Below, in pieces: positions 2,924 to 64,000 of a stretch of DNA of 64,000 nt; the stretch's first letter is position 1, and each line of letters begins with the position of its first letter. The translations under genes were made by a program, and so were the position numbers. This DNA comes from a bacterium (GTDB lineage Bacteria > Actinomycetota > Acidimicrobiia > Spongiisociales > ZC4RG35), in contig JAPPFC010000030.1 of the NCBI GenBank assembly GCA_028824015.1, forward strand, positions 98 through 64,097, given 5' to 3'. Under the pieces are notes generated by a model. It was not told the origin of the DNA, searched no databases, and saw nothing but the letters and a program-made list of their open reading frames with translations.

Positions 2924-3235
2924 TGTTCATCCTCAAGTATGCCGTTTCGGGACCTAACCGAACTCTCTGCCATGTGAAGGGACCCACCCCCCACTACGGC
3001 TCCTGACTCCACCCAAGCATCCCCCTGACGAAGACACCAGAAGGCTGCTCAGAATTCATCCGGTTTAGGGATGCTGGTGATCAAAGTGGGTCTCCTCGCA
3101 ACCCAGCCGCCTCCGCCAAATACCCGAAACCCTCCATGCCGTGCGAGGTGCAAGGTTCCACCCGCTTCGTGGTCACAGCGTAGTTCCGCTCCCCACGGAA
3201 AAAACTACCCTGCGTAGCCTGCCCGGCCTGGCGGC

Positions 3236-3790
3236 TCATATGGCGCCGCTGAACATCAAGCCAAAGATTGCTAGTAGCACTGCAGCGACGATGGTAGTTC
3301 CAACCACGATCCTTGCCGCCGTTTCCCTCGCCCAAGCCGCACCCGCGGTGTCAGCGGTGCGAGTCATGCCCCAAATGCCCGCCAGCACGGTCCAGGCACC
3401 GGTGCAGATCGCCCACCACATAACACCCAAACACCAGGCTCGGCCGTCACAGGGTGATGGGCCCCCAGACAGGATGCTCAAACCGATTAACGCCCCCACC
3501 GCAAAGGAGGCGGAGATCGCCATCAGCACTCCGCCGTAGCGCTCCACCACCTCGGTATAGCGCGCCGAGCCGTAGGACGCAACCGGCCCGCCGCACAGCA
3601 GCATGCCGAATAACGGCGGCACCACCACCACCGCATGCACTAGGTCGGGTACCCACTCCTGGGTACTAAGGGCCCACAAGAGCCCTACCACTCCTCCATA
3701 CCGGAACGCCCACCGCAAATAGGCCGCCATCATCTGATCTGGCACCTCGGCCAGCCACTCGACAAACTGCCCCAGCCACTGCCAGATCAT
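3236..3790 (-). CDS. Hypothetical multi-pass membrane protein
   Basis: 184-aa ORF with several hydrophobic helices (GGVVGLLWAL..., VLAGIWGM..., IVVGTTIVAAVLLAIFGLMF). It lies directly upstream of, and co-oriented with, the large ORF at 1-2923, inside the low-GC island. Confidence 0.45.
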   Translation of the reverse strand: MIWQWLGQFVEWLAEVPDQMMAAYLRWAFRYGGVVGLLWALSTQEWVPDLVHAVVVVPPLFGMLLCGGPVASYGSARYTEVVERYGGVLMAISASFAVGALIGLSILSGGPSPCDGRAWCLGVMWWAICTGAWTVLAGIWGMTRTADTAGAAWARETAARIVVGTTIVAAVLLAIFGLMFSGAI

Positions 3791-50020: not shown

Positions 50021-50167
50021 TCTTGAGGGAACAGCATCGGTTCTCTCGGCATCCACAAGCAGATAGTGCGAAAACAGTTGGTTCCGGAATTCGAAAGGAG
50101 CGTCATTCTTCACACTCCAACCCCAATAAACACGCTTTGGACCATTGGAAAGAGAAAGGAATGGCTA

Positions 50168-52228
50168 ATGAAGAGACTTTTAGTGTTGCTCTTGGTGGTC
50201 GGTCTGGTGGCGGCCGCATGCGGCGACGACGAGGCGGAAGTCACCCCGGACGAGATCGGCGACGAAGTTACAACCACCCCAGAGGAGTCGGACGAGGCCG
50301 AGCCGACCCCGACCGCGCCTGAGGAAGAGGCCGAAGTCACTTTGGATGAGTTGAATGTGGCTTACTTTTTGGAGTGGCCCACGGCCAACCAGGTTGCTCA
50401 GGCGGAGAAGACCTATGACCAGGCGCTCGGCGTGACCGTGAACTGGATACCGTTTGCCAGCGGAGGTGACATGGCACAGGCCATGGAGGCCGGAGACATC
50501 GACATCTCCTATTCCCAGGGGTTGACGCCCTTTGCCAACTTCGTGACGGGAGGTGCGGACCTGGTTCTTGTCGGGGTGGCAGTGGCTTACGCGGATGCCG
50601 ATAACTGCGTGGCCCATCCTGACTACGGCGTCACCAAGGAAAACGCCGCAGAGACCCTGGCCGGCCAGAGCATCTACACGCCGCTGGGGAACGTCACTCA
50701 TTTCAAGCTTTTGAAGATGTTGGAGCATCTGGGGGTTGAACTTGACAGTGTCGAGTTGATCCAGTCCGAGGGTGGACCGGCGGCGGTAGCCGCGCTTGAC
50801 ACCGGCAACGTGGCCATGGCGTGCGCGTTCGGCGGTGCCGTCAACGCCATGATCGCCAACGGCGGCAACCTGGTGATGACCGGTACGGAGCAGGAAGCCA
50901 TCGGGATCCGGGTGTTCGACATCATCTCGACAACCGGCACCTTCGCCGCTGAACATCCCGACGTCATAACTGCGTTCCTGCAGGTGACCGAGGACGCCAA
51001 CCGTGCTTACAACGATGACCGGGAACCGTTCATCGACACCATCGCAGGTGCGGCTGGTATGGACCGCGCTTCGACCATCGCTCTGCTGGACGCGTTCAGC
51101 TTCCCCGAAAAGGACGCGCAGCTTTCGGATGCGTGGCTCGGGGGAACCGTGCAGTCTGTGATGAAGGAGCAGATGGACTTCTTCGTGGAACAGGGCGAGA
51201 TCGACTCGGCCCTCGCCGACTACAGCCAGTTCGTGGACACCAGCTTCCTCGAAGGGGTCACGGCCAGAGAGGTCGCGATGACCGATGCCACGCCCGAGAT
51301 GACCTTGGATGAGTTGAATGTGGCTTACTTTTTGGAGTGGCCCACGGCCAACCAGGTTGCTCAGGCGGAGAAGACCTATGACCAGGCGCTCGGCGTGACC
51401 GTGAACTGGATACCGTTTGCCAGCGGAGGTGACATGGCACAGGCCATGGAGGCCGGAGACATCGACATCTCCTATTCCCAGGGGTTGACGCCCTTTGCCA
51501 ACTTCGTGACGGGAGGTGCGGACCTGGTTCTTGTCGGGGTGGCAGTGGCTTACGCGGATGCCGATAACTGCGTGGCCCATCCTGACTACGGCGTCACCAA
51601 GGAAAACGCCGCAGAGACCCTGGCCGGCCAGAGCATCTACACGCCGCTGGGGAACGTCACTCATTTCAAGCTTTTGAAGATGTTGGAGCATCTGGGGGTT
51701 GAACTTGACAGTGTCGAGTTGATCCAGTCCGAGGGTGGACCGGCGGCGGTAGCCGCGCTTGACACCGGCAACGTGGCCATGGCGTGCGCGTTCGGCGGTG
51801 CCGTCAACGCCATGATCGCCAACGGCGGCAACCTGGTGATGACCGGTACGGAGCAGGAAGCCATCGGGATCCGGGTGTTCGACATCATCTCGACAACCGG
51901 CACCTTCGCCGCTGAACATCCCGACGTCATAACTGCGTTCCTGCAGGTGACCGAGGACGCCAACCGTGCTTACAACGATGACCGGGAACCGTTCATCGAC
52001 ACCATCGCAGGTGCGGCTGGTATGGACCGCGCTTCGACCATCGCTCTGCTGGACGCGTTCAGCTTCCCCGAAAAGGACGCGCAGCTTTCGGATGCGTGGC
52101 TCGGGGGAACCGTGCAGTCTGTGATGAAGGAGCAGATGGACTTCTTCGTGGAACAGGGCGAGATCGACTCGGCCCTCGCCGACTACAGCCAGTTCGTGGA
52201 CACCAGCTTCCTCGAAGGCGTGGACTAG
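50168..52228 (+). CDS. NitT/TauT-family (NMT1/ThiY/SsuA-like) ABC substrate-binding lipoprotein containing an in-frame tandem duplication of the whole binding domain
   Basis: Lipoprotein signal MKRLLVLLLVVGLVAAACG. The mature region 50342-51254 is identical to 51305-52217 (offset 963 bp = 321 codons). Confidence 0.7.
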   Translation: MKRLLVLLLVVGLVAAACGDDEAEVTPDEIGDEVTTTPEESDEAEPTPTAPEEEAEVTLDELNVAYFLEWPTANQVAQAEKTYDQALGVTVNWIPFASGGDMAQAMEAGDIDISYSQGLTPFANFVTGGADLVLVGVAVAYADADNCVAHPDYGVTKENAAETLAGQSIYTPLGNVTHFKLLKMLEHLGVELDSVELIQSEGGPAAVAALDTGNVAMACAFGGAVNAMIANGGNLVMTGTEQEAIGIRVFDIISTTGTFAAEHPDVITAFLQVTEDANRAYNDDREPFIDTIAGAAGMDRASTIALLDAFSFPEKDAQLSDAWLGGTVQSVMKEQMDFFVEQGEIDSALADYSQFVDTSFLEGVTAREVAMTDATPEMTLDELNVAYFLEWPTANQVAQAEKTYDQALGVTVNWIPFASGGDMAQAMEAGDIDISYSQGLTPFANFVTGGADLVLVGVAVAYADADNCVAHPDYGVTKENAAETLAGQSIYTPLGNVTHFKLLKMLEHLGVELDSVELIQSEGGPAAVAALDTGNVAMACAFGGAVNAMIANGGNLVMTGTEQEAIGIRVFDIISTTGTFAAEHPDVITAFLQVTEDANRAYNDDREPFIDTIAGAAGMDRASTIALLDAFSFPEKDAQLSDAWLGGTVQSVMKEQMDFFVEQGEIDSALADYSQFVDTSFLEGVD
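50342..52217 (+). repeat. Near-perfect direct tandem repeat: 915 bp at offset 963 bp
   Basis: The 100-aa antisense ORFs 50698-51000 and 51661-51963 are identical. The 579-aa antisense ORF contains the same ~200-aa block twice. Direct comparison of 50342.. and 51305.. agrees. Confidence 0.85.
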
Positions 52229-53687: not shown

Positions 53688-54748
53688 TGGCGGAGACAAG
53701 ACCCCCCGACAGCGGCGGCGTGGGAACCATTAGGGGCACTCTCGCCGCGCTGTTCAGGCGATTCGGGTACCGCCGTGGAGGCACCGAAAGCGCCGGGAAG
53801 ACGGTCACCTTCGGCGACGCGGCGGTGGTCAAAGGCTCCCTGGCATGGACCATCCCCAGCCTCCTGGTCATCTTGGCGGTGTGGTATCTCGCCACCAACG
53901 TCTGGGGGATGCCCCAAGAGTGGGTAGAGCACGGAGAACAGGTTCGAGCGGGCCTGTCCGCCGACGAGAGCTACGGCCAGCGGGACCTACTGAGGGACTG
54001 CGAAGCCTCCCAAGAAAACCCGGGTGACTACCCCGGTCTCCCGCCCTGCTCCTACACCCAGTGGGTGAGCGAACGGGTGCTGCCCAGCCCGGCACAACTC
54101 TGGGACGCCTCGTGGAACTTCGCCCTGTACGGCTACAGCGGATTCTCGATGTGGGACCACCTCTGGTTGAGCTTCAGCCGCCTGGCCAAGGGACTCTTCT
54201 GGGGAGTCATCCTCGGCGTGCCCATCGGCCTGGCCATGGGTCTCTCCAATCGCTGGCGCGGAGTATTCGATCCCATAGTCGAGTTGCTCAGACCGATTCC
54301 GCCCCTGGCCCTCATCCCGCTCTTCATCGTTTGGTTCGGAATAGGCGAAGAGGGCAAGGTGAACCTGCTCCTGTTCGCTTCGATCTGGATCATGGTCATC
54401 GCGGCCCGCTCGGGCGTGCTGGCGGTGAACATCAGCAAGGTCCATGCCGCCTATTCGCTGGGCGCCTCCAAATCACAGATCCTCCGACACGTCATCCTCC
54501 CAAACGCCCTGCCCGAAATACTCACCGGAGTCCGGGTAGCGATAGGAGTGTGCTGGGGCACCCTGGTGGCGGCCGAACTCCTGGGCGCCAGTGCCGGACT
54601 GGGATTCACCATCTTCAAAGCCCGCCAGTTCTTCCTGCTGGACCTCATGCTCTCCGCAGTGATCCTCATCAGCATCCTCGGCGTAACCATGGACATCGTC
54701 ATGCGCATGGCCGAAAAACGCCTCATCCCCTGGCGAGGAAGAGGCTAA
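53687..54748 (+). CDS. ABC transporter permease (SsuC/TauC type)
   Basis: ATGA overlap with the ATPase stop. EAA-like loop region (ASKSQILRHVILPNALPEI). An extended Cys-containing periplasmic loop after TM1. Confidence 0.75.
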   Translation: MAETRPPDSGGVGTIRGTLAALFRRFGYRRGGTESAGKTVTFGDAAVVKGSLAWTIPSLLVILAVWYLATNVWGMPQEWVEHGEQVRAGLSADESYGQRDLLRDCEASQENPGDYPGLPPCSYTQWVSERVLPSPAQLWDASWNFALYGYSGFSMWDHLWLSFSRLAKGLFWGVILGVPIGLAMGLSNRWRGVFDPIVELLRPIPPLALIPLFIVWFGIGEEGKVNLLLFASIWIMVIAARSGVLAVNISKVHAAYSLGASKSQILRHVILPNALPEILTGVRVAIGVCWGTLVAAELLGASAGLGFTIFKARQFFLLDLMLSAVILISILGVTMDIVMRMAEKRLIPWRGRG

Positions 54749-54873
54749 GGGCGAGCCTCCGGTCCTCGGGAGCCTCTTTCTTTAGAAGGGGAACTGTCGT
54801 ACCTGAGTGCCAAAAGAAACTGGGAGGAGCCACCCCGCGGCAAGGACACAACTCGATTTGGTCCGTCCGTCAA

Positions 54874-55512
54874 TCAGCCAGTCGATTCTGTTGTCGAACC
54901 TGGGGCAACACTGCCCATCAACTTCGCAAAGAGGGCAAGCCAGTTTTGTTCGGACGGAATGTAGGGATCCGCCAGTCCGGCAGCCAACAACAGATGGGTT
55001 CCGATTCCGATCGCTTGACAAAACAGCGTCAAGGCAGCGGTGTCCTGTTGGGAGTCGCAGAATCCCTCGTCCTTGCTCCTCTCGATCATCACGCCCAACT
55101 GGTGGGCTTGATCGTTTAGGAAACCCTTGAGGCGTTCTTGGATGACCTCGTTGTTGCGGGCGCTGCCGAACACCTGCACCAGCACGTCTTTTGTTTGTTC
55201 AGGCTGCAACAGTTGGGCTGCCCACCCCAGGACCATAACGGTTGTGGGCAAGTCCGCGATACCCATGTCCCTGATCCTCTGTTCGGGCAATAACTGCTCG
55301 AAGAGATGGTCGAGGGCAGCGGCCATCAGATCACTTTTGTGAGGCCACCGCGGGTATACCGCACCAGGGGTGACCCCGGCGCGGCGGGCGATGTTGCTGA
55401 TGACTGCCTTGTCATACCCGCGTTCTACGAACTCTTCGGCGGCAGCCTCCAGCACCCGCCTCGCGGTCTCCTCCGAGCCGCGTCGCCGACGTAATCTGAC
55501 TTCGGTAGGCAT
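54874..55512 (-). CDS. TetR-family transcriptional regulator
   Basis: N-terminal HTH (RRVLEAAAEEFVERGYDKAVISNIARRAGVTPGAVYPRWPHKSDL). Confidence 0.75.
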   Translation of the reverse strand: MPTEVRLRRRRGSEETARRVLEAAAEEFVERGYDKAVISNIARRAGVTPGAVYPRWPHKSDLMAAALDHLFEQLLPEQRIRDMGIADLPTTVMVLGWAAQLLQPEQTKDVLVQVFGSARNNEVIQERLKGFLNDQAHQLGVMIERSKDEGFCDSQQDTAALTLFCQAIGIGTHLLLAAGLADPYIPSEQNWLALFAKLMGSVAPGSTTESTG

Positions 55513-55789
55513 AGCACTCTCCCGGAAAGAACTATCTTAGATTACCTCCGAGGGGGCCCGTGGCACGGGAGAACTCAACCCTGCCCGCGCCGGACCAGCG
55601 AAACAAATCGCCTAAACCCCTCAACCCCCACCATCCCCTGGACCGGCGCGCACCCTGTTACCGACAACATCGGCCCTCACCACCAAGACCCTCCCCCGGG
55701 CAGAACAGACCCCGCTCACTCTCACAACCACCATGGAATTCCCCAATAGGAACGATTACGCACGACATTTCCCGCGCACGGATAGCGCT

Positions 55790-55960
55790 TCCCGTCGGGG
55801 TAGCCCCGGCCCCGCAGGCATAGGGGCCGTGTTGTGCAGAGGCGATCCAGGGGACTGCAACCACGTGGACGCTGTGGCGCGGAGCATCGGCCGGGCCACC
55901 AACAACGAAGCTGAATATCGAGCAGTTATAGGTGCTAGGGCACTCTGTGTTTCGGGCAGG
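55790..55960 (+). pseudogene. Fragment of an RNase H-like domain (first ~55 aa only)
   Basis: GSPGPAGIGAVL...VDAVARSIGRATNNEAEYRAVIGARAL matches the N-terminal half of RNase H (GNPGPAGYGAVV...GRATNNVAEYRGLIAGL). The sequence then degenerates. Lower GC. Confidence 0.35.
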
Positions 55961-56246
55961 CGATCGGCACCCAACCCGCAGCCTTGGTCTTGGAGGTTGT
56001 TTTCGGCTGGGCCGCATCCTGCAACTTCCCATCCGACCCCAAGAGGAGCCGCTTCCACGATCTCCCTCGGGTCACCCCCAAGGGTGCCTACGCACGGGGT
56101 TAGAAAGCAGCAAGTCCAGAGACAACGGGGTTGCCCGGCTTGTCTTTCGGCTGTTAATGTGGGCCGAGATGCTTGAGGTTCTTGCCGCTGCGGCGCTGTT
56201 GGCGGGCGGTTGGTTCCAGCGTTATAGCCCTTGAGGCATTTCGTTC

Positions 56247-56840
56247 TTGGGTCAGTTCGGCCCGACTTTTGCTACTAGTCGGGGTGTCCGGCGCTTCTCT
56301 CACAGCGGCCTGTACGCGTTGGGTGTGTTGGTGTCTTCAACGCTGTTCTTACTGGGGGTCTCGGCTGCGGGGGTGTGGTTCAAGGAGATGGCGGGCCGCC
56401 GGACCTCGGTAGCTGTTGCATTGGCGCTGGCTGGACTGCTGTTGCTCTTGGACGGGATGAGGTTGTGGGGCGGGCGTTCTACTTCTTTCGGGCCGAAGCG
56501 GCAGACTCCTTACGACTGGCGGTTGAGAGGGCGGGTGGGTGTTGTCGCCTGGGGTGTCGACACGGGTTTGCCTGTTTCGACGGTGAGAGCCACGCCGTTG
56601 CCGGTGCTCGGTGTGATCCTTGCTGCTACTGGTCATTCGCTCTGGTTTTACGGACTGTTCTATGGGTTCGGTTTGACGTTGGGTGTGCTGGCCGGGTTGC
56701 CGTGGGCCCGCTCGTTCGTCCGGATTGATTGGGCGATGGCGGAACTGCAACGCAGGCATCGTAGGATCAACCCGGTTCTACTGGTCGTTCCGAGTGGCCT
56801 GACGGTGGTTGCGTTGGTGTCAGCGTTAGTCCTTGGCTAA
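56247..56840 (+). CDS. Hypothetical membrane protein (4-5 TM)
   Basis: 197 aa, hydrophobic helices. First gene of the co-oriented cluster. Confidence 0.45.
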   Translation: MGQFGPTFATSRGVRRFSHSGLYALGVLVSSTLFLLGVSAAGVWFKEMAGRRTSVAVALALAGLLLLLDGMRLWGGRSTSFGPKRQTPYDWRLRGRVGVVAWGVDTGLPVSTVRATPLPVLGVILAATGHSLWFYGLFYGFGLTLGVLAGLPWARSFVRIDWAMAELQRRHRRINPVLLVVPSGLTVVALVSALVLG

Positions 56841-56872
56841 TAGTTGTAGCTACAACTTAGCTCACTAACATC

Positions 56873-57307
56873 ATGTCGAGTGTGAGCGACATGCGGCGTT
56901 ACACCCGACCACGCCCGGGCCTTTATGGATCGAGTGAGTTCCTCGAGTTTCTCGGACGGCCGCTGGCGCAACCCGCTCAGCGTGATCGAGGTGGGGCTGT
57001 TGAGTCCGGAGCGGAGGCAGGGCATGGTGTTCTGGAGTTGGGCGTCAGCGAATCAAGACCAGACAGTGGATTCGTGAACGTGAGGCTGGACAGCACCGGC
57101 CAAGTCGTGCGGGCCAGGTTCAGCGGCTTCATCCCGGGGTATCGGCTGGCACCCGGGGATGAGTTGTGCGTGGAACTCGTGGACGATGGGTGGCGGACCG
57201 TTCCCGAAGTGCGTCACACTATCAAGCACCGCGATCGCATTGAATTCTGGGGGGTTAACCGCCTGACCGGTGAGTTCCGGCTCCTAGCCGAGAATTATTA
57301 CGAGTGA
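56873..57307 (+). CDS. Hypothetical soluble protein
   Basis: 144 aa, no recognisable motifs. Confidence 0.4.
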   Translation: MSSVSDMRRYTRPRPGLYGSSEFLEFLGRPLAQPAQRDRGGAVESGAEAGHGVLELGVSESRPDSGFVNVRLDSTGQVVRARFSGFIPGYRLAPGDELCVELVDDGWRTVPEVRHTIKHRDRIEFWGVNRLTGEFRLLAENYYE

Positions 57308-57314
57308 TCAAGCC

Positions 57315-57926
57315 TTGAACCTGGAGTGGATGGGTGTTCCGGTGCTGGTGGTGGCCGCGTTGCTTCTCTTAAGCGGCCTGCCGAAGATCGCAGATCCCAG
57401 ACCCGTGGCCGGAACCATGGAGTGGCTGTACGATCAGGTATCGGCACGCTGGCGCGGTTCGGGCGGTTCCCCGGTGGATCTGTCTCGTCCGGGCCGGTTG
57501 CTGGGACTGGCGGAGGTGGGTGTGGCCGGTTGGGTGGTGCTGGGACCGTCGTGGGGGGCGGCGGTCGCTTTGACTCTGCTGGCCGCGGGGTTCGCGGCGG
57601 CGGGCCTTGTGGGCGCCTTGTCTGACGTGCAGGTGGCTTGTGCCTGTTTCGGCAGGCAGGGGCGACCGCTGGGTTACTTTCATGTCCTGCTGTTTCCGGT
57701 CTGGGTAGGAGCGGCGTGGTGCGTGGGTCGGGTCGAAGGGTTCGGAGGGTTGGATGAGCGTTTGCTGGCGTTGGGGCTGTGCTGTGTTGGTGTCTTGTGC
57801 GTGTACCTGGTGAGGATGTGGGCGGCGTTGATGCCGTTGGCTCAGCACCGGCGTCGGGCAGCGATGCGGGTGGGTACTGTGACGCGGGTCGCCCATGGAG
57901 AGGCAGAGTGGTTGTTGCCGCGTTGA
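57315..57926 (+). CDS. MauE/DoxX-like membrane protein
   Basis: 203 aa, 4-5 TM, with the N-terminal VAALLLLSGLPKIADP pattern of the MauE family. Confidence 0.5.
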   Translation: MNLEWMGVPVLVVAALLLLSGLPKIADPRPVAGTMEWLYDQVSARWRGSGGSPVDLSRPGRLLGLAEVGVAGWVVLGPSWGAAVALTLLAAGFAAAGLVGALSDVQVACACFGRQGRPLGYFHVLLFPVWVGAAWCVGRVEGFGGLDERLLALGLCCVGVLCVYLVRMWAALMPLAQHRRRAAMRVGTVTRVAHGEAEWLLPR

Positions 57927-58498
57927 TCGTCTCCATAGTGGCCCTGGTGGTGAGTGCTCTGTGCGCGCTGGCGGTGATGGAGTTGCTAGCAAGTCGGTCC
58001 CACGGCAGGACGGAGGTAGATGACTCTCTGATCGAAGAGTTCGAGGTGCCGGCGAGCGTGGCTGGCACCGCCGCCAGTTCCCACGGTCTGCCGGAACGGA
58101 TCGACCATCTGGACCGTCATCTGGCTCTGTTCCTGTCCCCCATGTGTGCTCACTGCGCGGCGATCGCCTCCTCCCTGGGCGGGATGGTGCCTGATGACTT
58201 GACGGTGGTGGTAACCGCTTCTGCTCCCGAACGTATGCGTGTCTGGTCCCGGGATCGGGGCTTGTCGACTGACGACGTGGTCTTTGACGACGACATGTCC
58301 ATCGTGGGAAGCCTCAAGGTGGCGTCCAGCCCTACGGTGGTGGGCTTCGGCGCGGGCCGGGTGGTCTTTGCGGCCGGCATCGGAGGTAAGGCCGCGTTGG
58401 AGAAGTTGTTGGAGCAATGCTCTTCTGGGTTCTCCGAGGACATCTCTGATCTCTTGGGGCCAACGTCCGGGCAGGAACCCGGCGGCTCCCCGGGGTGA
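57908..58498 (+). CDS. Membrane-anchored thioredoxin-fold thiol:disulfide oxidoreductase (MauD/TlpA-like, CAHC active site)
   Basis: GTG start overlapping the MauE stop by 19 nt. N-terminal TM anchor, then LFLSPMCAHCAAI (CxxC). Confidence 0.55.
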   Translation: MVVAALIVSIVALVVSALCALAVMELLASRSHGRTEVDDSLIEEFEVPASVAGTAASSHGLPERIDHLDRHLALFLSPMCAHCAAIASSLGGMVPDDLTVVVTASAPERMRVWSRDRGLSTDDVVFDDDMSIVGSLKVASSPTVVGFGAGRVVFAAGIGGKAALEKLLEQCSSGFSEDISDLLGPTSGQEPGGSPG

Positions 58499-61400
58499 TT
58501 GCTTCGGCGGGTCCTCACGGTCGCGGCCAGGCGGGTCTCTGCGGGCGGCTGGCAGTGATATTCGTGACGGTGTTGCTCCTGATCACCGCGTTGGGACCGC
58601 TGGCGGCGGCTCAGGATGGAACGGGATCGGGTTCGGGTGTGTTTGGGGATGTGGGTCCGGGGCCGCATTGGGCTGCGGTTGAGGCGTTGGCGTCGTTGGG
58701 GGTGTTCGAGGGTACCGAGTGTGGTGAGGGGTTCTGTCCTGACGACCCGGTGCAGCGTTGGGTGATGGCGGTGTGGTTGGTGCGGGTGCTGGACCTGGCT
58801 TTGCCGGCGGTCGATGAGCCGCGGTTCGTCGATGTTGAGGCGTCGCAGTGGTGGTGGCGTTATGTGGAGGCGTTGGCGGAGGCTGGGGTGACGCGGGGTT
58901 GTGCCGAGGAGCCGGCGCGGTTCTGTCCGGACGGTTCGGTGTCTCGGTCGGAGATGGCGTCGTTTCTGGTGCGGGCGTTCGGGCTGGAGCCGGCGTTGGA
59001 GAGCGCGGGGTTTGTGGATGTGCCGGTGGGTGGTGCGAGTTGGCTTGATATCGAGGCTTTGGCTGCGAGTGGGGTGACTTCTGGTTGCGATGCGGAGGGG
59101 CCTCGGTTCTGTCCCGATCAGCCCACCACCCGCGCTCAGATGGCAACGTTCCTGTATCGGGCCATGACTCTTGGTGCGGGTTTTGGTGTGTTTGGGGATG
59201 TGGGTCCGGGGCCGCATTGGGCTGCGGTTGAGGCTTTGGCGTCGTTGGGGGTGTTCGAGGGTACCGAGTGTGGTGAGGGCTTCTGTCCTGACAAGCCGGT
59301 GCAGCGTTGGGTGATGGCGGTGTGGTTGGTGCGGGTGCTGGACCTGGCTTTGCCGGCGGTCGATGAGCCGCGGTTCGTCGATGTTGAGGCGTCGCAGTGG
59401 TGGTGGCGTTATGTGGAGGCGTTGGCGGAGGCTGGGGTGACGCGGGGTTGTGCCGAGGAGCCGGCGCGGTTCTGTCCGGACGGTTCGGTGTCTCGGTCGG
59501 AGATGGCGTCGTTTCTGGTGCGGGCGTTCGGGCTGGAGCCGGCGTTGGAGAGCGCGGGGTTTGTGGATGTGCCGGTGGGTGGTGCGAGTTGGCTTGATAT
59601 CGAGGCTTTGGCTGCGAGTGGGGTGACTTCTGGTTGCGATGCGGAGGGGCCTCGGTTCTGTCCCGATCAGCCCACCACCCGCGCTCAGATGGCGACATTC
59701 ATCAAAAGGGCCCACCCTGCCCTGGTGGCGTGTCCCAACGACATGCGGGAATCCGACCCCGAGGACGACACCAGCGGAGGTGGAGGCGGCGCCGGTGTCG
59801 GTGTCGGTGGAGGCGGCGGTGGTAGCGGTGGAGGCGGCGGTGGTAGCGGTGGAGGTGGAGGTGGCGGTGGACGTAGAACCCCAACCCCCGTTCCGACTCC
59901 GCAAGTTCCCGGAACGCCCCAGAACGTGTCGGCGGTGGGAGGGGACGAGTCGGTTGCCGTGGAGTGGTCGCCGCCGACCGATGACGGGGGGTCCCCGGTG
60001 ACCGGCTACCTGATCCGCTGGAAGCGGGCAACGCGAGCGACGTACAGCGATTCGAGACTGGCTGGTGCTGCGGCCCGCAGCATCGAGATCACCGGTCTGC
60101 TGCCCGCCACGCAGTATGACGTGTCCGTGGCTGCTGTCAGCGATGTCGGGGAGGGTGGCGCCGCAATCGTGCGGGCCACTACCCTGGATCCGCCTCCCGG
60201 CGCTCCCGGCGCCCCTCAGAACGTGTCGGCGGTGGGAGGGGACGAGTCGGTTGCCGTGGAGTGGTCGCCGCCGACCGATGACGGGGGGTCCCCGGTGACC
60301 GGCTACCTGATCCGCTGGAAGCGGGCAACGCGAGCGACGTACAGCGATTCGAGACTGGCTGGCGCTGCGGCCCGGAGCATCGAGATCACCGGTCTGCTGC
60401 CCGGTACGCAGTATGACGTTTCCGTGGCTGCAGTCAACGCATTGGGCACCGGCAGGTTCGAGGTCGGGCAGGCCACTACATTGGGCACCCCGCCCGATCC
60501 TCCCGGCCCGCCCCTCTCTGTGAACTTGGTTCGCGGTGTCGAGAGTCTCACCGTCACATGGTCGCCGCCCGCCGACGACGGTGGTACCCCGATCACGGGC
60601 TATGCCATGAGGTGGAGGAAGGAGAGTCAGCCGACGTCCTGGCTGCAGCGGTCGGTCGGATCCAACGAGCGCAGCACCGTTCTCGCCGACTTGGAGCGGG
60701 GGGAAGAATATCGAGTCGAGGTCTGGGCTGTCAACGATGCGGGAAATGGAACCAAGGTCGTCGAAATGGCCGAGCCGCTTGAGCTACCGGGCACGCCTCT
60801 GAGTGTGGCAGTGGTCGGCGGCATGGGAAGCCTGACCGTCTCGTGGTCACCGCCAACCGAAGACGGCGGATCGCCGATCACCGGATACCAGGTCCGTTGG
60901 AAACGGACCAACGAGTCGAGCTTCACCGACTCGACGAATCTGGGATCGGCAGTCCGTAGCTACCAAATCGTGAATCTGGACCCGGGCGTCGACTACCAGG
61001 TTGCGGTGGCAGCCGGAAACGTCGTCGGTCTCGGACCGGATTCCCAGGAGCAGTCCAAGGTGCCCGACGTGCCGCAAGCTCCGCTACTGCAGGAACCGGT
61101 GGTGGGTGAGGACAGTTTCATGCTGGAGTGGGCGCAACAAGAGGATGACACGGTGCCAATAACCGGGTACGAACTGCGGTGGAAACTGGCAGGGGCCACC
61201 AGTTACACCAACGAGCGACAGCTCTCGGCCGCCGACCGCAGTGTGGAGGTGCGCAACCTGACCGCCGGCACCGACTACGACGTGGCCCTCAACGCCACAT
61301 CCGCCAATGGCGATGGGCGGATCTCCGAAACGGAGGCGCAACTTATCGACGGACCGGCGCCGCCGGGTCCGCCCCGGGAACTGTCCGCGGTGCTCAGCCT

Positions 61401-63432
61401 CGACGGTTCCACAGTGTCCTGGTCGGCTCCCTACAGCGACGGCGGCTCGGCCATCACCAAGTACAAACTCAGTTGGTCCGGTCACACCAGCGGAGAAGCA
61501 GAGGTCACCGGTCTGAGCTACGAATCCGACGCGTTCAGTCTGAGCACCACCCACATGTTCCGCGTCTCCGCAGTCAATGCCGAGGGCGAAGGCACGCCAG
61601 CCCTGGCTGCCGCCACCATCGCCGGTCTCCCGCCGCCGCCCCAGGATCTGAGACTCGTGCCCGGCGACGGGAAGCTAACGGTCGCCTGGCTTTTGGTAAG
61701 GGGACCCTCGATCCCGCTGATCAGCGCCGGGCGGGTGACCGCTTACCGCGTGCAGTGGAAAAGTGGGGACCAGGACTACAGCGAGGACCGGCAGGCCGAG
61801 GTGCCGTCTCTTGACGACCTGCGTCACGACGATGTCGCGGTGCGCCATCAGCACGAGATCCCGTCGCTGACCAACGGAACGGTCTACACGGTACGGGTCA
61901 TGGCAGTGAGCGAGACGGGGGTTAGCCCGGGCGCCGAGGCGTCGGGCGCTCCTGCCGCGCCCAACCCCAACGCACCCACCGACCTGACTCTCTCTGTAGA
62001 TGTCGAAGAAGTGGATGTGCAATGGTCCGCACCCTCGGTGTCGAGTGGCGTCACCGTGGACGGTTACCGGGTCCAGTGGCGTCTCGACGGCGAGGAATAC
62101 GGTACGGAGGACTGGACCGAGGTGTCCGACACCTCGGCCACCGTCGAAGACCTGACTCCGGGTGAGTTGTACTTCATCAGGGTGACAGCGCTGCTCTCGG
62201 ACGACTCGGGCGGGTGGGCCGAGGCCCGTATCGCGCCCTTGGCCCTGCCCGGCGAGCCACAAGACCTCACCGCAGTCGGCAGCGGCGGTCTGGCGACCGT
62301 ATCGTGGTCCGCTCCTGATCCGGTCGACGGGGGTCCGGTGCTCGCCTACCGAGTGAGGTGGAGGGCCTACATCAAACAGGAGATGTACACAACACAGACC
62401 CAAATCGTTGCCGACCTACCCAACCGGGTGGCGACAAGAGTCGGAGTGGAGGCGGTCAACTCACTGGGAATAGGTCCATTGGTATGGAAGTCGGTAACGC
62501 CCCCGGCGCCGACCCGTTCCATCCGGGACCTGCAAGTCCGGTCAGGCGACGGCGTCCTGGACATCTCATGGCGGGCACCAACAGGTCAACCGAGCCGCGA
62601 CTACACGGTGCAGTGGCGGGCTTCCGACGAAACCTATGATGACTCCCGGTCGGCTCAAACCACGGACCGCCAGTACGAGATCACCAGCCTGAGGAGCGAT
62701 ATCCGGCATTTCGTGCGGGTCCGGGCGGAGAAGGGCGCCGACCTCGGGCAGTGGACCGAGATCTCGGCTCAGCCGGAGGGCTTCACGGATCGGCCGGACG
62801 CGCCGACCGGGATCGCCACCGCGGGCTCCGACGAGCGGCTGCTGGTCTCCTGGTCGGCCCCGTCCAACATCAACGGCTCCACGATCGGCGGGTACCTCGT
62901 GGAGTGGCGAACGGCCGGAGGAGAATACAACTCAGACGACCAGGCGGAAACGGATGCGTCGACGCTCAACCACCAGATCAGCGCGCTGACGAACGGCACT
63001 ATCTATGAGGTGCGGGTCCGGGCGCTGACCAGCGACGACCAACCCGGCGCGGCCATAACGGCGAGCGCAGTGCCGCTAGGTACTCCCGGAGCGCCCACCG
63101 AAACCGCTGTCGATGCCCGCCACGACATGCTGCTGGTGTCGTGGCTGCCGCCCACCAGCGACGGTGGAGCGCCCATCGACCACTACAGAATCTCCTGGAG
63201 GAGCGAGACGCAGAGCTTCCCCTCCAATGACTGCTCCGACCGGGTAACCTATGTCAGGTGGCCGAATGCCGTCATCACATTCGAAGGGTTCACACACCTC
63301 ACCGGTCGCTTCTTCGATTCCGTCAACCTTGTTCAGGGCCGCGAGTACTTCGTGCGGATCCAAGCCGAGACCTCCGAAGGGCGCGGTCCGGCAGCCGAGG
63401 TCTCAGCAAGAGTGCGCTTTGCTCCCCGCTAA
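58495..63432 (+). CDS. Giant secreted cell-surface protein: signal peptide, 2 x (3 SLH domains), Gly-rich linker, ~12 fibronectin type III domains
   Basis: GTG start overlapping the upstream stop (GTGA). Signal LLLITALGPLAAAQD. SLH-like units (FGDVGPGPHWAAVEALASLGVFEGTECGEGFCPD..., FVDVEASQWWWRYVEALAEAGVTRGCAEEPARFCPD..., FVDVPVGGASWLDIEALAASGVTSGCDAEGPRFCPD...). Linker GGGGGAGVGVGGGGGGSGGGGGGSGGGGGGGG. Repeated FN3 modules (GSPVTGYLIRWKR...YDVSVAAV). Confidence 0.8.
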   Translation: MIASAGPHGRGQAGLCGRLAVIFVTVLLLITALGPLAAAQDGTGSGSGVFGDVGPGPHWAAVEALASLGVFEGTECGEGFCPDDPVQRWVMAVWLVRVLDLALPAVDEPRFVDVEASQWWWRYVEALAEAGVTRGCAEEPARFCPDGSVSRSEMASFLVRAFGLEPALESAGFVDVPVGGASWLDIEALAASGVTSGCDAEGPRFCPDQPTTRAQMATFLYRAMTLGAGFGVFGDVGPGPHWAAVEALASLGVFEGTECGEGFCPDKPVQRWVMAVWLVRVLDLALPAVDEPRFVDVEASQWWWRYVEALAEAGVTRGCAEEPARFCPDGSVSRSEMASFLVRAFGLEPALESAGFVDVPVGGASWLDIEALAASGVTSGCDAEGPRFCPDQPTTRAQMATFIKRAHPALVACPNDMRESDPEDDTSGGGGGAGVGVGGGGGGSGGGGGGSGGGGGGGGRRTPTPVPTPQVPGTPQNVSAVGGDESVAVEWSPPTDDGGSPVTGYLIRWKRATRATYSDSRLAGAAARSIEITGLLPATQYDVSVAAVSDVGEGGAAIVRATTLDPPPGAPGAPQNVSAVGGDESVAVEWSPPTDDGGSPVTGYLIRWKRATRATYSDSRLAGAAARSIEITGLLPGTQYDVSVAAVNALGTGRFEVGQATTLGTPPDPPGPPLSVNLVRGVESLTVTWSPPADDGGTPITGYAMRWRKESQPTSWLQRSVGSNERSTVLADLERGEEYRVEVWAVNDAGNGTKVVEMAEPLELPGTPLSVAVVGGMGSLTVSWSPPTEDGGSPITGYQVRWKRTNESSFTDSTNLGSAVRSYQIVNLDPGVDYQVAVAAGNVVGLGPDSQEQSKVPDVPQAPLLQEPVVGEDSFMLEWAQQEDDTVPITGYELRWKLAGATSYTNERQLSAADRSVEVRNLTAGTDYDVALNATSANGDGRISETEAQLIDGPAPPGPPRELSAVLSLDGSTVSWSAPYSDGGSAITKYKLSWSGHTSGEAEVTGLSYESDAFSLSTTHMFRVSAVNAEGEGTPALAAATIAGLPPPPQDLRLVPGDGKLTVAWLLVRGPSIPLISAGRVTAYRVQWKSGDQDYSEDRQAEVPSLDDLRHDDVAVRHQHEIPSLTNGTVYTVRVMAVSETGVSPGAEASGAPAAPNPNAPTDLTLSVDVEEVDVQWSAPSVSSGVTVDGYRVQWRLDGEEYGTEDWTEVSDTSATVEDLTPGELYFIRVTALLSDDSGGWAEARIAPLALPGEPQDLTAVGSGGLATVSWSAPDPVDGGPVLAYRVRWRAYIKQEMYTTQTQIVADLPNRVATRVGVEAVNSLGIGPLVWKSVTPPAPTRSIRDLQVRSGDGVLDISWRAPTGQPSRDYTVQWRASDETYDDSRSAQTTDRQYEITSLRSDIRHFVRVRAEKGADLGQWTEISAQPEGFTDRPDAPTGIATAGSDERLLVSWSAPSNINGSTIGGYLVEWRTAGGEYNSDDQAETDASTLNHQISALTNGTIYEVRVRALTSDDQPGAAITASAVPLGTPGAPTETAVDARHDMLLVSWLPPTSDGGAPIDHYRISWRSETQSFPSNDCSDRVTYVRWPNAVITFEGFTHLTGRFFDSVNLVQGREYFVRIQAETSEGRGPAAEVSARVRFAPR
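58636..59733 (+). repeat. 549-bp near-identical tandem repeat (a triple-SLH block duplicated). A further 297-bp near-identical repeat lies at 59917-60510 (first two FN3 modules).
   Basis: Identical 66-aa antisense ORFs at 58848-59048 and 59397-59597. Only a few substitutions between copies (e.g. CPDDPV vs CPDKPV). Confidence 0.8.
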
Positions 63433-63459
63433 GCGGATGAACCCACCCCACTTCAATAT

Positions 63460-63879
63460 ATGAAGGCCGCTGCGGGGAAGCGATCCGGCCGGGTTCCTCA
63501 GGCTTTGCCTTCAGCCGCGGAGCAGAGTCGTGAGGCCTTGGCCTTCCCGCAGGGCAGTCCTCAAAGCCGCCGACAATTCCTGCGCATCGCGTCCAGGGCA
63601 GCCTTGTTAGTTCTGGCCGCCGGGGCGCGGGTCGTTCTCGACGCGTCGCCGGCGAACGCAAGAGAAGACCTGGACGTGGGATGCTGCGTACTCGCCCAGT
63701 ATCCGTCCCAATGGTGTCCTTTCATGTGCCAGGACTCCGGTCTTGTCCTGCGGTGCTGGACATGCAACTCAGGCCAATGCAAGTGCTGCGAGTGCACTGC
63801 CTTCGCGAGCGACGAGGAGGAGCCCAGTTGCTTCACCGGTTCTGCGTTCGCCTGCTCCTACAGGTCGGGTTGCTGCTGA
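63460..63879 (+). CDS. Tat-signal, cysteine-rich small secreted protein (14 Cys in the ~70-aa mature region)
   Basis: Twin-arginine motif SRRQFLRIAS, then an h-region and an ANA cleavage site. Mature part DVGCCVLAQYPSQWCPFMCQDSGLVLRCWTCNSGQCKCCECTAFASDEEEPSCFTGSAFACSYRSGCC. Unusually long (~38 aa) n-region. Confidence 0.6.
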   Translation: MKAAAGKRSGRVPQALPSAAEQSREALAFPQGSPQSRRQFLRIASRAALLVLAAGARVVLDASPANAREDLDVGCCVLAQYPSQWCPFMCQDSGLVLRCWTCNSGQCKCCECTAFASDEEEPSCFTGSAFACSYRSGCC

Positions 63880-64000
63880 GGATCGCGGTCCCCACCGCCG
63901 GTTTCAACCACCAGCAGCGACACTTACGAAAGTAGCATCGGATGGTCGCCCGACGGAAACGCATCCTATTTGTGAGTAGAACAGATGGTGACGCTGAACT

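Follow-up and report, generated by a model that had tools for sequence, protein, structure and literature searches.

The window analysed here is a stretch of 64,000 nucleotides (nt) from an Acidimicrobiia bacterium (GCA_028824015.1, contig JAPPFC010000030.1, positions 98 to 64,097 of the forward strand). Towards its end, six genes form a tight series on one strand (Table 1): gene A, gene B, a gene for a MauE-like membrane protein, a gene for a MauD-like protein with a thioredoxin (Trx) fold, a giant gene encoding SLH and FN3 domains, and an open reading frame (ORF) for a Cys-rich protein with a twin-arginine signal, which we call CysTAT. The subject of this report is the MauE-like/Trx-like pair, together with the cassette in which it is embedded.

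Table 1. Coordinates of the genes and motifs of the cassette in the window
Feature	Positions	Strand	Description
Gene A	56247-56840	+	ORF, 197 aa
Gene B	56873-57307	+	ORF, 144 aa; alternative start 56891
MauE-like gene	57315-57926	+	Pfam PF07291 match, 203 aa
Codons C-A-C-F-G of MauE-like gene	57639-57653	+	Motif reported as MauE active site
Shine-Dalgarno GGAGAGG of Trx-like gene	57897-57903	+	4 nt before GTG
MauE/Trx coding overlap	57908-57926	+	19 nt, from GTG start 57908
Trx-like (MauD-like) gene	57908-58498	+	Trx fold model, 196 aa
Codons CAHC of Trx-like gene	58145-58156	+	CxxC motif, residues 80-83
Giant SLH/FN3 gene	58495-63432	+	Pfam SLH + fn3, 1645 aa
CysTAT ORF	63460-63879	+	139-aa precursor, twin-arginine signal, 14 Cys

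Three sets of loci served for comparison: 14 distinct Acidimicrobiia loci, examined by six-frame profile searches; six "remote" loci, the contig surroundings of six distant Trx-family members (L030-L033, L040, L041); and the mau cluster of P. denitrificans plus seven other amine dehydrogenase clusters. A first, sequence-only reading of the window had placed the GTG of the Trx-like gene inside the MauE-like gene and taken this to mean tight coupling, which is borne out both by the coordinates and by the recurrent adjacency of the two genes in relatives. MauE immediately precedes Trx, either abutting it or overlapping with it, in 11 of the 14 Acidimicrobiia loci, in all six remote loci and in 8/8 mau/amine-dehydrogenase clusters, and the coding overlaps in relatives and in true mauE-mauD pairs measure 4-19 nt. 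The start of the giant gene, in turn, overlaps the stop of the Trx-like gene by 4 nt.

The GTG at 57908 is in frame with a longer ORF (57779-58498). In three relatives (L005, L015 and L010), a stop is found 2-7 codons before the same M-V-x-A-A-L N-terminus; since the frame of the orthologues is closed just upstream, the start at 57908 and the short uncharged N-terminus that it implies are real, and a longer N-terminus from GTG 57779 was rejected. The resulting length of 196 aa is also that of the NCBI and ENA gene calls. For the MauE-like gene, homologues begin with M-D/S-F/L-x-W-L-D, in agreement with the TTG at 57315 and making an ATG at 57330 less likely. The exact sequence has been deposited, as a hypothetical protein, from the metagenome-assembled genome (MAG) of an uncultured bacterium (GCA_028820285.1). 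Both ORFs are confirmed as genes and are not chance ORFs.

The first gene of the pair had been considered MauE-like, and its sequence confirms it as a member of the MauE family. The protein matches PF07291 with 34.4 bits (cut-off 27, E 3.2e-8, model positions 10-112 of 128), and the same family is precomputed on nine of ten of its homologues. It has five predicted transmembrane (TM) helices and an Arg-rich C-terminal tail, the C-A-C-F-G motif falling between TM3 and TM4. In an alignment of nine sequences (A2), both Cys and the Gly of CxC-F-G are invariant, as are K19 (end of TM1) and E62 (early TM2), while three of the nine have Leu in place of the Phe. When compared by hhalign with a profile of true MauE, built from the eight amine dehydrogenase clusters, the Lys, the Glu and the CxC were aligned, K19/E62 pairing with K29/E62. 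The AlphaFold model (pLDDT 52, from a 9-sequence alignment) was used for the positions of the helices and not for their geometry. One relative, the MauE-like protein of Ca. Aldehydirespirator (L007, 9276-10007), carries an insertion, the repeat (GLGQVS)x5, between its fourth and fifth TM helices.

These features are, to judge from the sequence, all those reported for the DsbB-like MauE. In a recent preprint (Gonzalez et al., bioRxiv 10.64898/2026.03.05.709764), two MauE homologues replaced DsbB in E. coli and the CxC was essential; the F-G after the CxC, the TM1 Lys and the TM2 Glu were conserved, and a link to quinone was proposed. MauE was also proposed to act via a Trx-family intermediary, fusions to Trx domains making up 8.2% of MauE entries. 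By analogy, our MauE-like protein would be a quinone-linked thiol oxidase. It shares with the MauE of the preprint the CxC-F-G between TM3 and TM4 and the conserved Lys and Glu. However, the two homologues tested there have four TM helices and a predicted periplasmic CxC and are not of the five-TM type, whereas the protein studied here has a fifth helix, a tail rich in Arg and a concentration of Lys/Arg on the CxC side. Furthermore, it seems dedicated to a cassette, whereas the MauE of the preprint is described as a generalist.

In its AlphaFold model (pLDDT 88.3), the protein encoded by the second gene of the pair has, at its N-terminus, an uncharged TM helix (residues 2-32) and, behind an acidic linker, a Trx domain. 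The putative active site, C80-A-H-C83, sits at the N-terminus of helix 81-89, after strand 70-76, and the cis-Pro, P142, precedes strand 143-148. Residues P78, C80, C83, S140, S141 and P142 are invariant in alignment A1, and 56 close homologues keep both S-P-x-C-x-x-C and S-S-P. The best PDB matches of the model in Foldseek were FetE, TlpA, ResA, CcmG, DsbE/DsbF and SdbA, those to the TlpA/ResA/CcmG class having E ~1e-5 at 11-19% identity. The model thus supports a thioredoxin fold of this structural class, and the membrane anchor and CAHC site that had been likened to those of MauD, TlpA and ResA are both recovered.

As for family membership, the Trx-like protein matched no Pfam model at E <= 1, including Redoxin, AhpC-TSA and Thioredoxin, and no NCBIfam model at E <= 1, including TIGR02661, the MauD equivalog; a search of PDB sequences with the profile of the family returned nothing significant. 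Hence, a Pfam scan of the pair places its MauE half above the cut-off and leaves its Trx-like half without a model. A profile search of 1.84 billion representatives yielded 262 clusters that match the protein in size and architecture and have a CxxC near residue 80. Most of them are not assigned to any family; MauD-like proteins and MauE-Trx fusions appear towards the end of the list. Weak Pfam matches were seen among 70 members of the wider family (seven to Thioredoxin_2, five to AhpC-TSA, two to Redoxin, and one each to Thioredoxin_8 and Thioredoxin), and P0206, a distant member of that family, matches TIGR02661 at 5.8e-18.

Profile-profile comparison by hhalign was more telling. The wider Trx family (A7) aligned with true MauD (A5) at 98.3% (E 1.2e-14, 171 columns from residue 1), and the Acidimicrobiia subfamily (A1) did so at 85.5%. 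The same subfamily scored 31% against E. coli CcmG, while MauD and CcmG scored 97% against each other. The proposed likeness to MauD therefore stands as full-length homology of the wider family, anchor included, but not as membership of TIGR02661: by homology and architecture the protein is MauD-like, outside the MauD equivalog. TlpA, ResA and CcmG (DsbE) share with it the fold class and a single N-terminal anchor, which in their case is a basic signal anchor. They match Redoxin and AhpC-TSA and act as reductases, whereas the Trx-like protein has no model match. Because no curated family is matched, the redox direction of the Trx-like protein is not fixed by its family.

The sequence-only reading had drawn attention to two Cys-containing secreted neighbours of the pair, and both exist. 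The first, CysTAT, has escaped most gene callers: ENA does not call it, and NCBI annotates instead a 57-aa ORF in another frame (63762-63935). Its signal, SRRQFLR...LLVLAAGA...ANA, comprises a twin-arginine motif, a hydrophobic region and an A-x-A site, although the Pfam TAT_signal model was not reached at E <= 1. Twelve aligned sequences share R37, R38 and all 14 Cys without exception, with F40 and L41 conserved at 90% or more. The mature part, of ~65 aa, holds all 14 Cys in the framework CC-x9-C-x3-C-x8-C-x2-C-x4-C-x-CC-x-C-x5-11-C-x6-7-C-x5-CC, found in 12 of the 13 copies in the loci (that of L015 differs), along with three conserved aromatic residues, W85, W100 and (in 90% or more of the sequences) Y134. 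CysTAT matched nothing in Pfam, NCBIfam or the PDB, known metalloprotein families included. Just one relative was found among 5.8 billion protein clusters; six-frame searches revealed relatives in 12 Acidimicrobiia and six remote loci. As a possible homologue of MauA it was rejected, since hhalign gave 5% with an alignment confined to the signal for twin-arginine translocation (Tat).

The second neighbour, the giant protein, is predicted to have a Sec-type signal, six SLH domains, a Gly-rich linker and ~12 FN3 domains (6 SLH and 12 fn3 stretches in Pfam). Twelve of its 15 Cys belong to six C-x4-7-C-P pairs in the SLH domains. The idea that these pairs are specific to the cassette was rejected, as an SLH protein outside the cassette carries the same ones. 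The giant gene also contains two internal duplications: one of 549 nt in tandem (58628-58927 / 59177-59476), 98% identical and covering a whole three-SLH unit, and one of 297 nt in the FN3 region (59879-60142 / 60176-60439), 92% identical. They point to a recent internal expansion or to an effect of the assembly.

The products of genes A and B are harder to place. Gene A encodes a predicted polytopic membrane protein with no Cys and with conserved MGQFGP, RQTPxxWR and WGxDxGxPxxTxR motifs (alignments A3 and A9); it matches nothing in Pfam, NCBIfam or the PDB. Its orthologues adjoin the Trx gene in 13 Acidimicrobiia and five remote loci, and plasmids searched by tblastn with one of the remote A proteins gave no match. 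One member showed a weak match to DsbD_2 (E 0.38), which we judged not meaningful. An identity with MauF was rejected: hhalign of A9 against MauF (A8) gave 1.7%, and only a short Q-x-P...R...GL..GL...T motif lines up. The gene B product has a conserved C-terminal core of ~90 aa (alignment A11) and matches nothing in Pfam or the PDB. In the window it lacks a signal peptide, and the Acidimicrobiia B proteins have no twin-arginine signal. Two remote B-like proteins (L030, 4470-5018; L031, 1203-1715) have twin-arginine signals of their own (RRxFL), which would fit a hitch-hiker co-export with the Cys-rich protein.

These genes are kept together across genomes. In a scan of one genome per species, the Trx family was confined to Acidimicrobiia MAGs, several of which take their names from sponges (Ca. 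Spongiisociaceae, Ca. Poriferisodalis, Ca. Aldehydirespirator). In the Acidimicrobiia loci, the giant, B, a Cys-rich ORF with a Tat signal, MauE, Trx and A occur on one strand in permuted order; gene A is present in 14 of 14 loci and CysTAT in 12. In tandem duplications, the giant, B and CysTAT are copied as a group, with or without the MauE/Trx pair. The Ca. Aldehydirespirator genome (L007) has, in tandem, two Trx, two giants, two B and two CysTAT with a single MauE, and in one genome two Trx copies lie inside one 13-kb stretch.

All six remote loci have MauE-Trx with a Cys-rich ORF alongside. Five of these ORFs bear a twin-arginine signal, the sixth (L033), as called, having no recognisable one. 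Gene A follows in every remote locus having downstream sequence, and a B-like protein is usually present. No giant protein occurs in the six remote loci, orthologues of the giant in a cassette being limited to the Acidimicrobiia loci. As judged from this comparison, the conserved core of the cassette is B, MauE, Trx, CysTAT and A; because these five recur in remote loci without the giant, the latter is, on the same grounds, a lineage-specific addition of Acidimicrobiia. The first reading had called both Cys-containing neighbours substrates, and comparative genomics now makes the small one, CysTAT, a conserved partner of the pair.

Two other observations concern the surroundings of the cassette in relatives. 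In L005 (15558-16073) and L007 (17638-18078), the cassette is followed closely downstream by a gene of the F420H2-dependent quinone reductase family (PF04075); no such gene was seen among those called up to 10 kb downstream of the pair in the contigs of the present MAG. One remote contig, L030, has a second cluster (337-1750 on the minus strand, and 1881-3707), with a 63-aa, 10-Cys peptide devoid of a signal peptide, a MauE (CRC), an anchored Trx of the AhpC/TSA type (CHVC) and an ABC transporter.

The arrangement invites comparison with the mau system, whose logic of mauE, mauD and mauA it mirrors with an unrelated client. In the eight mau-type clusters, mauE is followed by mauD, abutting or with a 4-nt overlap. 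True MauE resembles our protein in its five TM helices, TM1 Lys, TM2 Glu, CxC after TM3 and basic C-terminal tail. True MauD, too, is an anchored Trx protein of ~200 aa; no Lys/Arg precedes its N-terminal helix, after which comes an invariant R-Q. The neighbouring client is in both cases a protein with a twin-arginine signal and many Cys: in MauA the signal is invariant, and the P. denitrificans protein has 12 Cys. There are also differences. The cassette is devoid of mauA, mauB, mauG and amicyanin, and no amine dehydrogenase genes (mauB, mauA) were found in the neighbourhood within the window or in the 20-kb loci of relatives. True MauD matches AhpC-TSA, Thioredoxin_2 and Redoxin and has a C-P-x-C motif, whereas the Trx-like protein matches none of these models and has CAHC. 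Finally, CysTAT is unrelated to MauA beyond the signal, and partners A and B are not MauF.

Similar associations are found elsewhere. On Bacillus plasmids, MauE occurs together with an ABC transporter and a TraF-like Trx. In Bacillus SPbeta, BdbB and BdbA are a dedicated oxidase pair encoded next to the sublancin genes sunA/sunT, so that here too a membrane thiol oxidase and a Trx-like partner accompany a small Cys-containing exported product; however, BdbB is a homologue of DsbB and not of MauE, and the client is exported by an ABC transporter and not by Tat. Candidate clusters for RiPPs (peptides made on ribosomes and modified post-translationally) found in Streptomyces by decRiPPter contain mauE, in one family also mauD, and precursors with at least 8 Cys (PMC7794033). 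They resemble the present case in that actinobacterial MauE(/MauD) homologues outside methylotrophy stand beside small Cys-rich products, but RiPP precursors were proposed there, whereas here we find a client with a Tat signal, together with A and B and, in Acidimicrobiia, with the giant.

Putting these data together, we think it fairly probable that the pair is the coupled, MauE/MauD-type thiol-oxidising core of the cassette and that CysTAT is its dedicated client. The data show the families and fold, the conserved motifs, the gene coupling and the conservation of the cassette; that the pair oxidises, which protein it serves and that it uses quinone are what we infer. According to this scheme, the CxC of MauE would pass electrons to quinone, thereby generating a disulfide as DsbB does, and would re-oxidise the CAHC of its co-translated, anchored Trx-like partner. 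The latter would then introduce or shuffle disulfides in the client. This client would be the 14-Cys CysTAT, in parallel with MauE/MauD and the 12-Cys, Tat-signal MauA, while the giant with its six SLH Cys pairs might be a second client or, in Acidimicrobiia, the functional partner of CysTAT.

Several findings sit uneasily with this scheme. A Tat signal usually denotes folding or cofactor loading before export, which is awkward if oxidation takes place outside. The AlphaFold model of the MauE-like protein is of low confidence. The Trx-like protein matches no curated family, and the dipeptide within its CxxC varies (AH, AR, TR, AM and others). MauE is absent within 10 kb in three of the 14 Acidimicrobiia loci that nevertheless keep Trx and A (two of these three also keep CysTAT), so the MauE-Trx coupling is not absolute. 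Lastly, the Cys count of the remote CysTAT-like proteins ranges from 7 to 13 and is sometimes odd; since the number is so variable, a purely intramolecular disulfide knot fits poorly.

One alternative concerns the direction of electron flow. The Trx-like protein might act like ResA, CcmG or TlpA in a reducing or isomerising pathway, holding the Cys of the client in the reduced state or rearranging them, for instance to let a cofactor or metal be inserted, with electrons supplied via the membrane partner. Its closest structural matches are the reductases TlpA, ResA, CcmG and FetE, a reductase role for MauE had been put forward in an earlier study cited by Gonzalez et al. (bioRxiv 10.64898/2026.03.05.709764), and a client with 14 Cys would need isomerisation. 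However, MauE has none of the features of the electron importers DsbD and CcdA, and two of its homologues replace an oxidase, DsbB. Protein A, having no Cys, offers no thiol relay, and the subfamily is nearer to MauD than to CcmG (see the hhalign values above). We therefore regard such a pathway as unlikely, and the role of reductase or isomerase first suggested for the Trx-like protein as less likely than that of oxidase, since MauE homologues replace DsbB.

A second alternative concerns the client. CysTAT might be a metal or cluster protein loaded in the cytoplasm, the pair handling its thiols in the way of TlpA with ScoI/CuA, or protecting them, instead of making structural disulfides. Tat signals are typical of cofactor proteins, the CC, CxC and CxxC spacings are also metal-binding spacings, and TlpA-ScoI complexes are among the fold matches. 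On the other hand, the conserved aromatic residues and the fixed 14-Cys framework resemble a disulfide-knotted miniprotein, CysTAT matches no known metalloprotein family or PDB entry, and the cassette contains no genes for cofactor insertion. We consider this explanation improbable. Just as improbable is a general housekeeping disulfide system with no dedicated client, whose neighbours would be there by operon coincidence: MauE has been argued to be a generalist in many phyla (bioRxiv 10.64898/2026.03.05.709764) and the SLH Cys pairs outside the cassette imply a genome-wide need for oxidation, but the same five genes stay associated, in varying order, in distant lineages, and there are the tandem duplications of giant, B and CysTAT and the two Trx copies in a single 13-kb stretch. 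In our reading, the pair is not a stand-alone housekeeping system; it is the catalytic core of a cassette made of A, B, MauE, Trx and CysTAT.

If the pair is indeed a thiol-oxidising core, one may ask on which side of the membrane it works. We put the conventional outer face at slightly better than even, and the cytoplasmic face, with oxidation before Tat export, at somewhat under even. The outer face is suggested by homology to the DsbB-replacing MauEs, whose CxC is periplasmic according to TOPCONS (bioRxiv 10.64898/2026.03.05.709764); the TlpA/ResA fold class and the Sec-type giant neighbour also argue for it.

The charge distribution speaks for the opposite orientation, and the outward-facing CxxC that the first reading expected is not confirmed. 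Over 22 five-TM MauE sequences, including true MauE and fusions, Lys/Arg residues number 246 on the CxC side vs 45 on the other, the smaller count being inflated by mis-segmented cases. Because Lys and Arg cluster there, the CxC side reads as cytoplasmic under the positive-inside rule. Similarly, none of 103 Trx-like or MauD sequences has a Lys or Arg before the Trx anchor, and 1.2-2.3 follow it, although the 15 residues after the anchor are net acidic in the Acidimicrobiia subfamily. A MauE-Trx fusion of the same subtype (P0189) has the CxC and the Trx domain two TM helices apart, which places both on the same side; the fusion informs on this shared side only, not on which side it is. The associated clients, moreover, have Tat signals (MauA, CysTAT, some B) or a leader peptide plus an ABC transporter (L030), and no Sec signals.

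Another fusion also bears on this point. A plasmid gene of Streptomyces sp. NBC_01562 (WP_266655999.1; L035, 4998-6530, also L038 and L039) encodes a 510-aa protein that combines MauE (5 TM, CHC) and Trx (CGAC) with a Tat-like signal (RGRSTIARRALLFASATMVPAVISTRAMA) and a domain with 16 Cys, in the order MauE(5 TM)-Trx-RGRSTIARR-ALLFASATMVPAVIS-TRAMA-RG...-Cys-rich domain. The gene is intact in three strains, with 94-96% identity. The Tat-type signal comes straight after the Trx domain, is of modest hydrophobicity and is followed by basic residues. From its sequence, the fusion may be a dual Sec/Tat-targeted protein, since such an architecture is known from membrane proteins of that kind (PMC5449189). 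If the Tat-type signal is functional, the Trx domain and the CxC of this protein are cytoplasmic.

Tat is reported to be able to export proteins with disulfides made in the cytoplasm (PMC9995818). Tentatively, and with somewhat less than even confidence, we propose that five-TM MauE and MauD-type Trx proteins, including the present pair and the classical mau pair, may face the cytoplasm and oxidise their Cys-rich clients at the inner face of the membrane before the folded product leaves by Tat. If true, this would explain the Tat signals of MauA and CysTAT, and the pair would be a natural counterpart of engineered systems that oxidise in the cytoplasm and export by Tat. A search of the literature on MauE/MauD topology and on Tat export of the MauA disulfides found nothing beyond the preprint already cited (bioRxiv 10.64898/2026.03.05.709764).

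MauE was recognised in 2026 as a third kind of bacterial disulfide-generating enzyme (bioRxiv 10.64898/2026.03.05.709764), and a MauE/MauD-like pair on its own is largely explained by such recent work. What our analysis adds is a conserved cassette, a hidden 14-Cys client with a Tat signal, and sequence signals that question the assumed orientation. The cassette offers a concrete, conserved system in which to study the partners and clients of MauE outside methylotrophy, and brings with it a MauD-like family in which no Pfam or NCBIfam model covers the Trx-like protein, two accessory proteins and a seldom-called miniprotein. It also joins three observations, namely MauE/MauD with MauA, the Streptomyces mauE genes beside "RiPP-like" Cys-rich genes, and the present case, in a shared pattern, in which a pair of the MauE/MauD type stands next to a Cys-rich client whose export does not use Sec. 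For a Cys-rich protein exported by Tat, the place and manner of disulfide formation thereby become testable. Being tied in Acidimicrobiia to giant SLH/FN3 surface proteins, the cassette may also matter for the cell surface.

Some features of the flanking DNA complete the description of the locus. About 730 nt without genes (55513-56246) separate gene A from a divergent TetR-family gene (54874-55512, minus strand). Scanned for promoters and terminators, 55400-64000 showed no promoter-like site upstream of the operon on the plus strand, and terminator-like sites only at chance level; there was no Rfam match in 54500-64000, the gene-free stretch before gene A included. Further upstream, a gene for an NMT1-like ABC substrate-binding protein (50066-52228, plus strand) contains an internal tandem duplication of 963 nt with 99% identity, which gives two near-identical binding domains within one 720-aa ORF.

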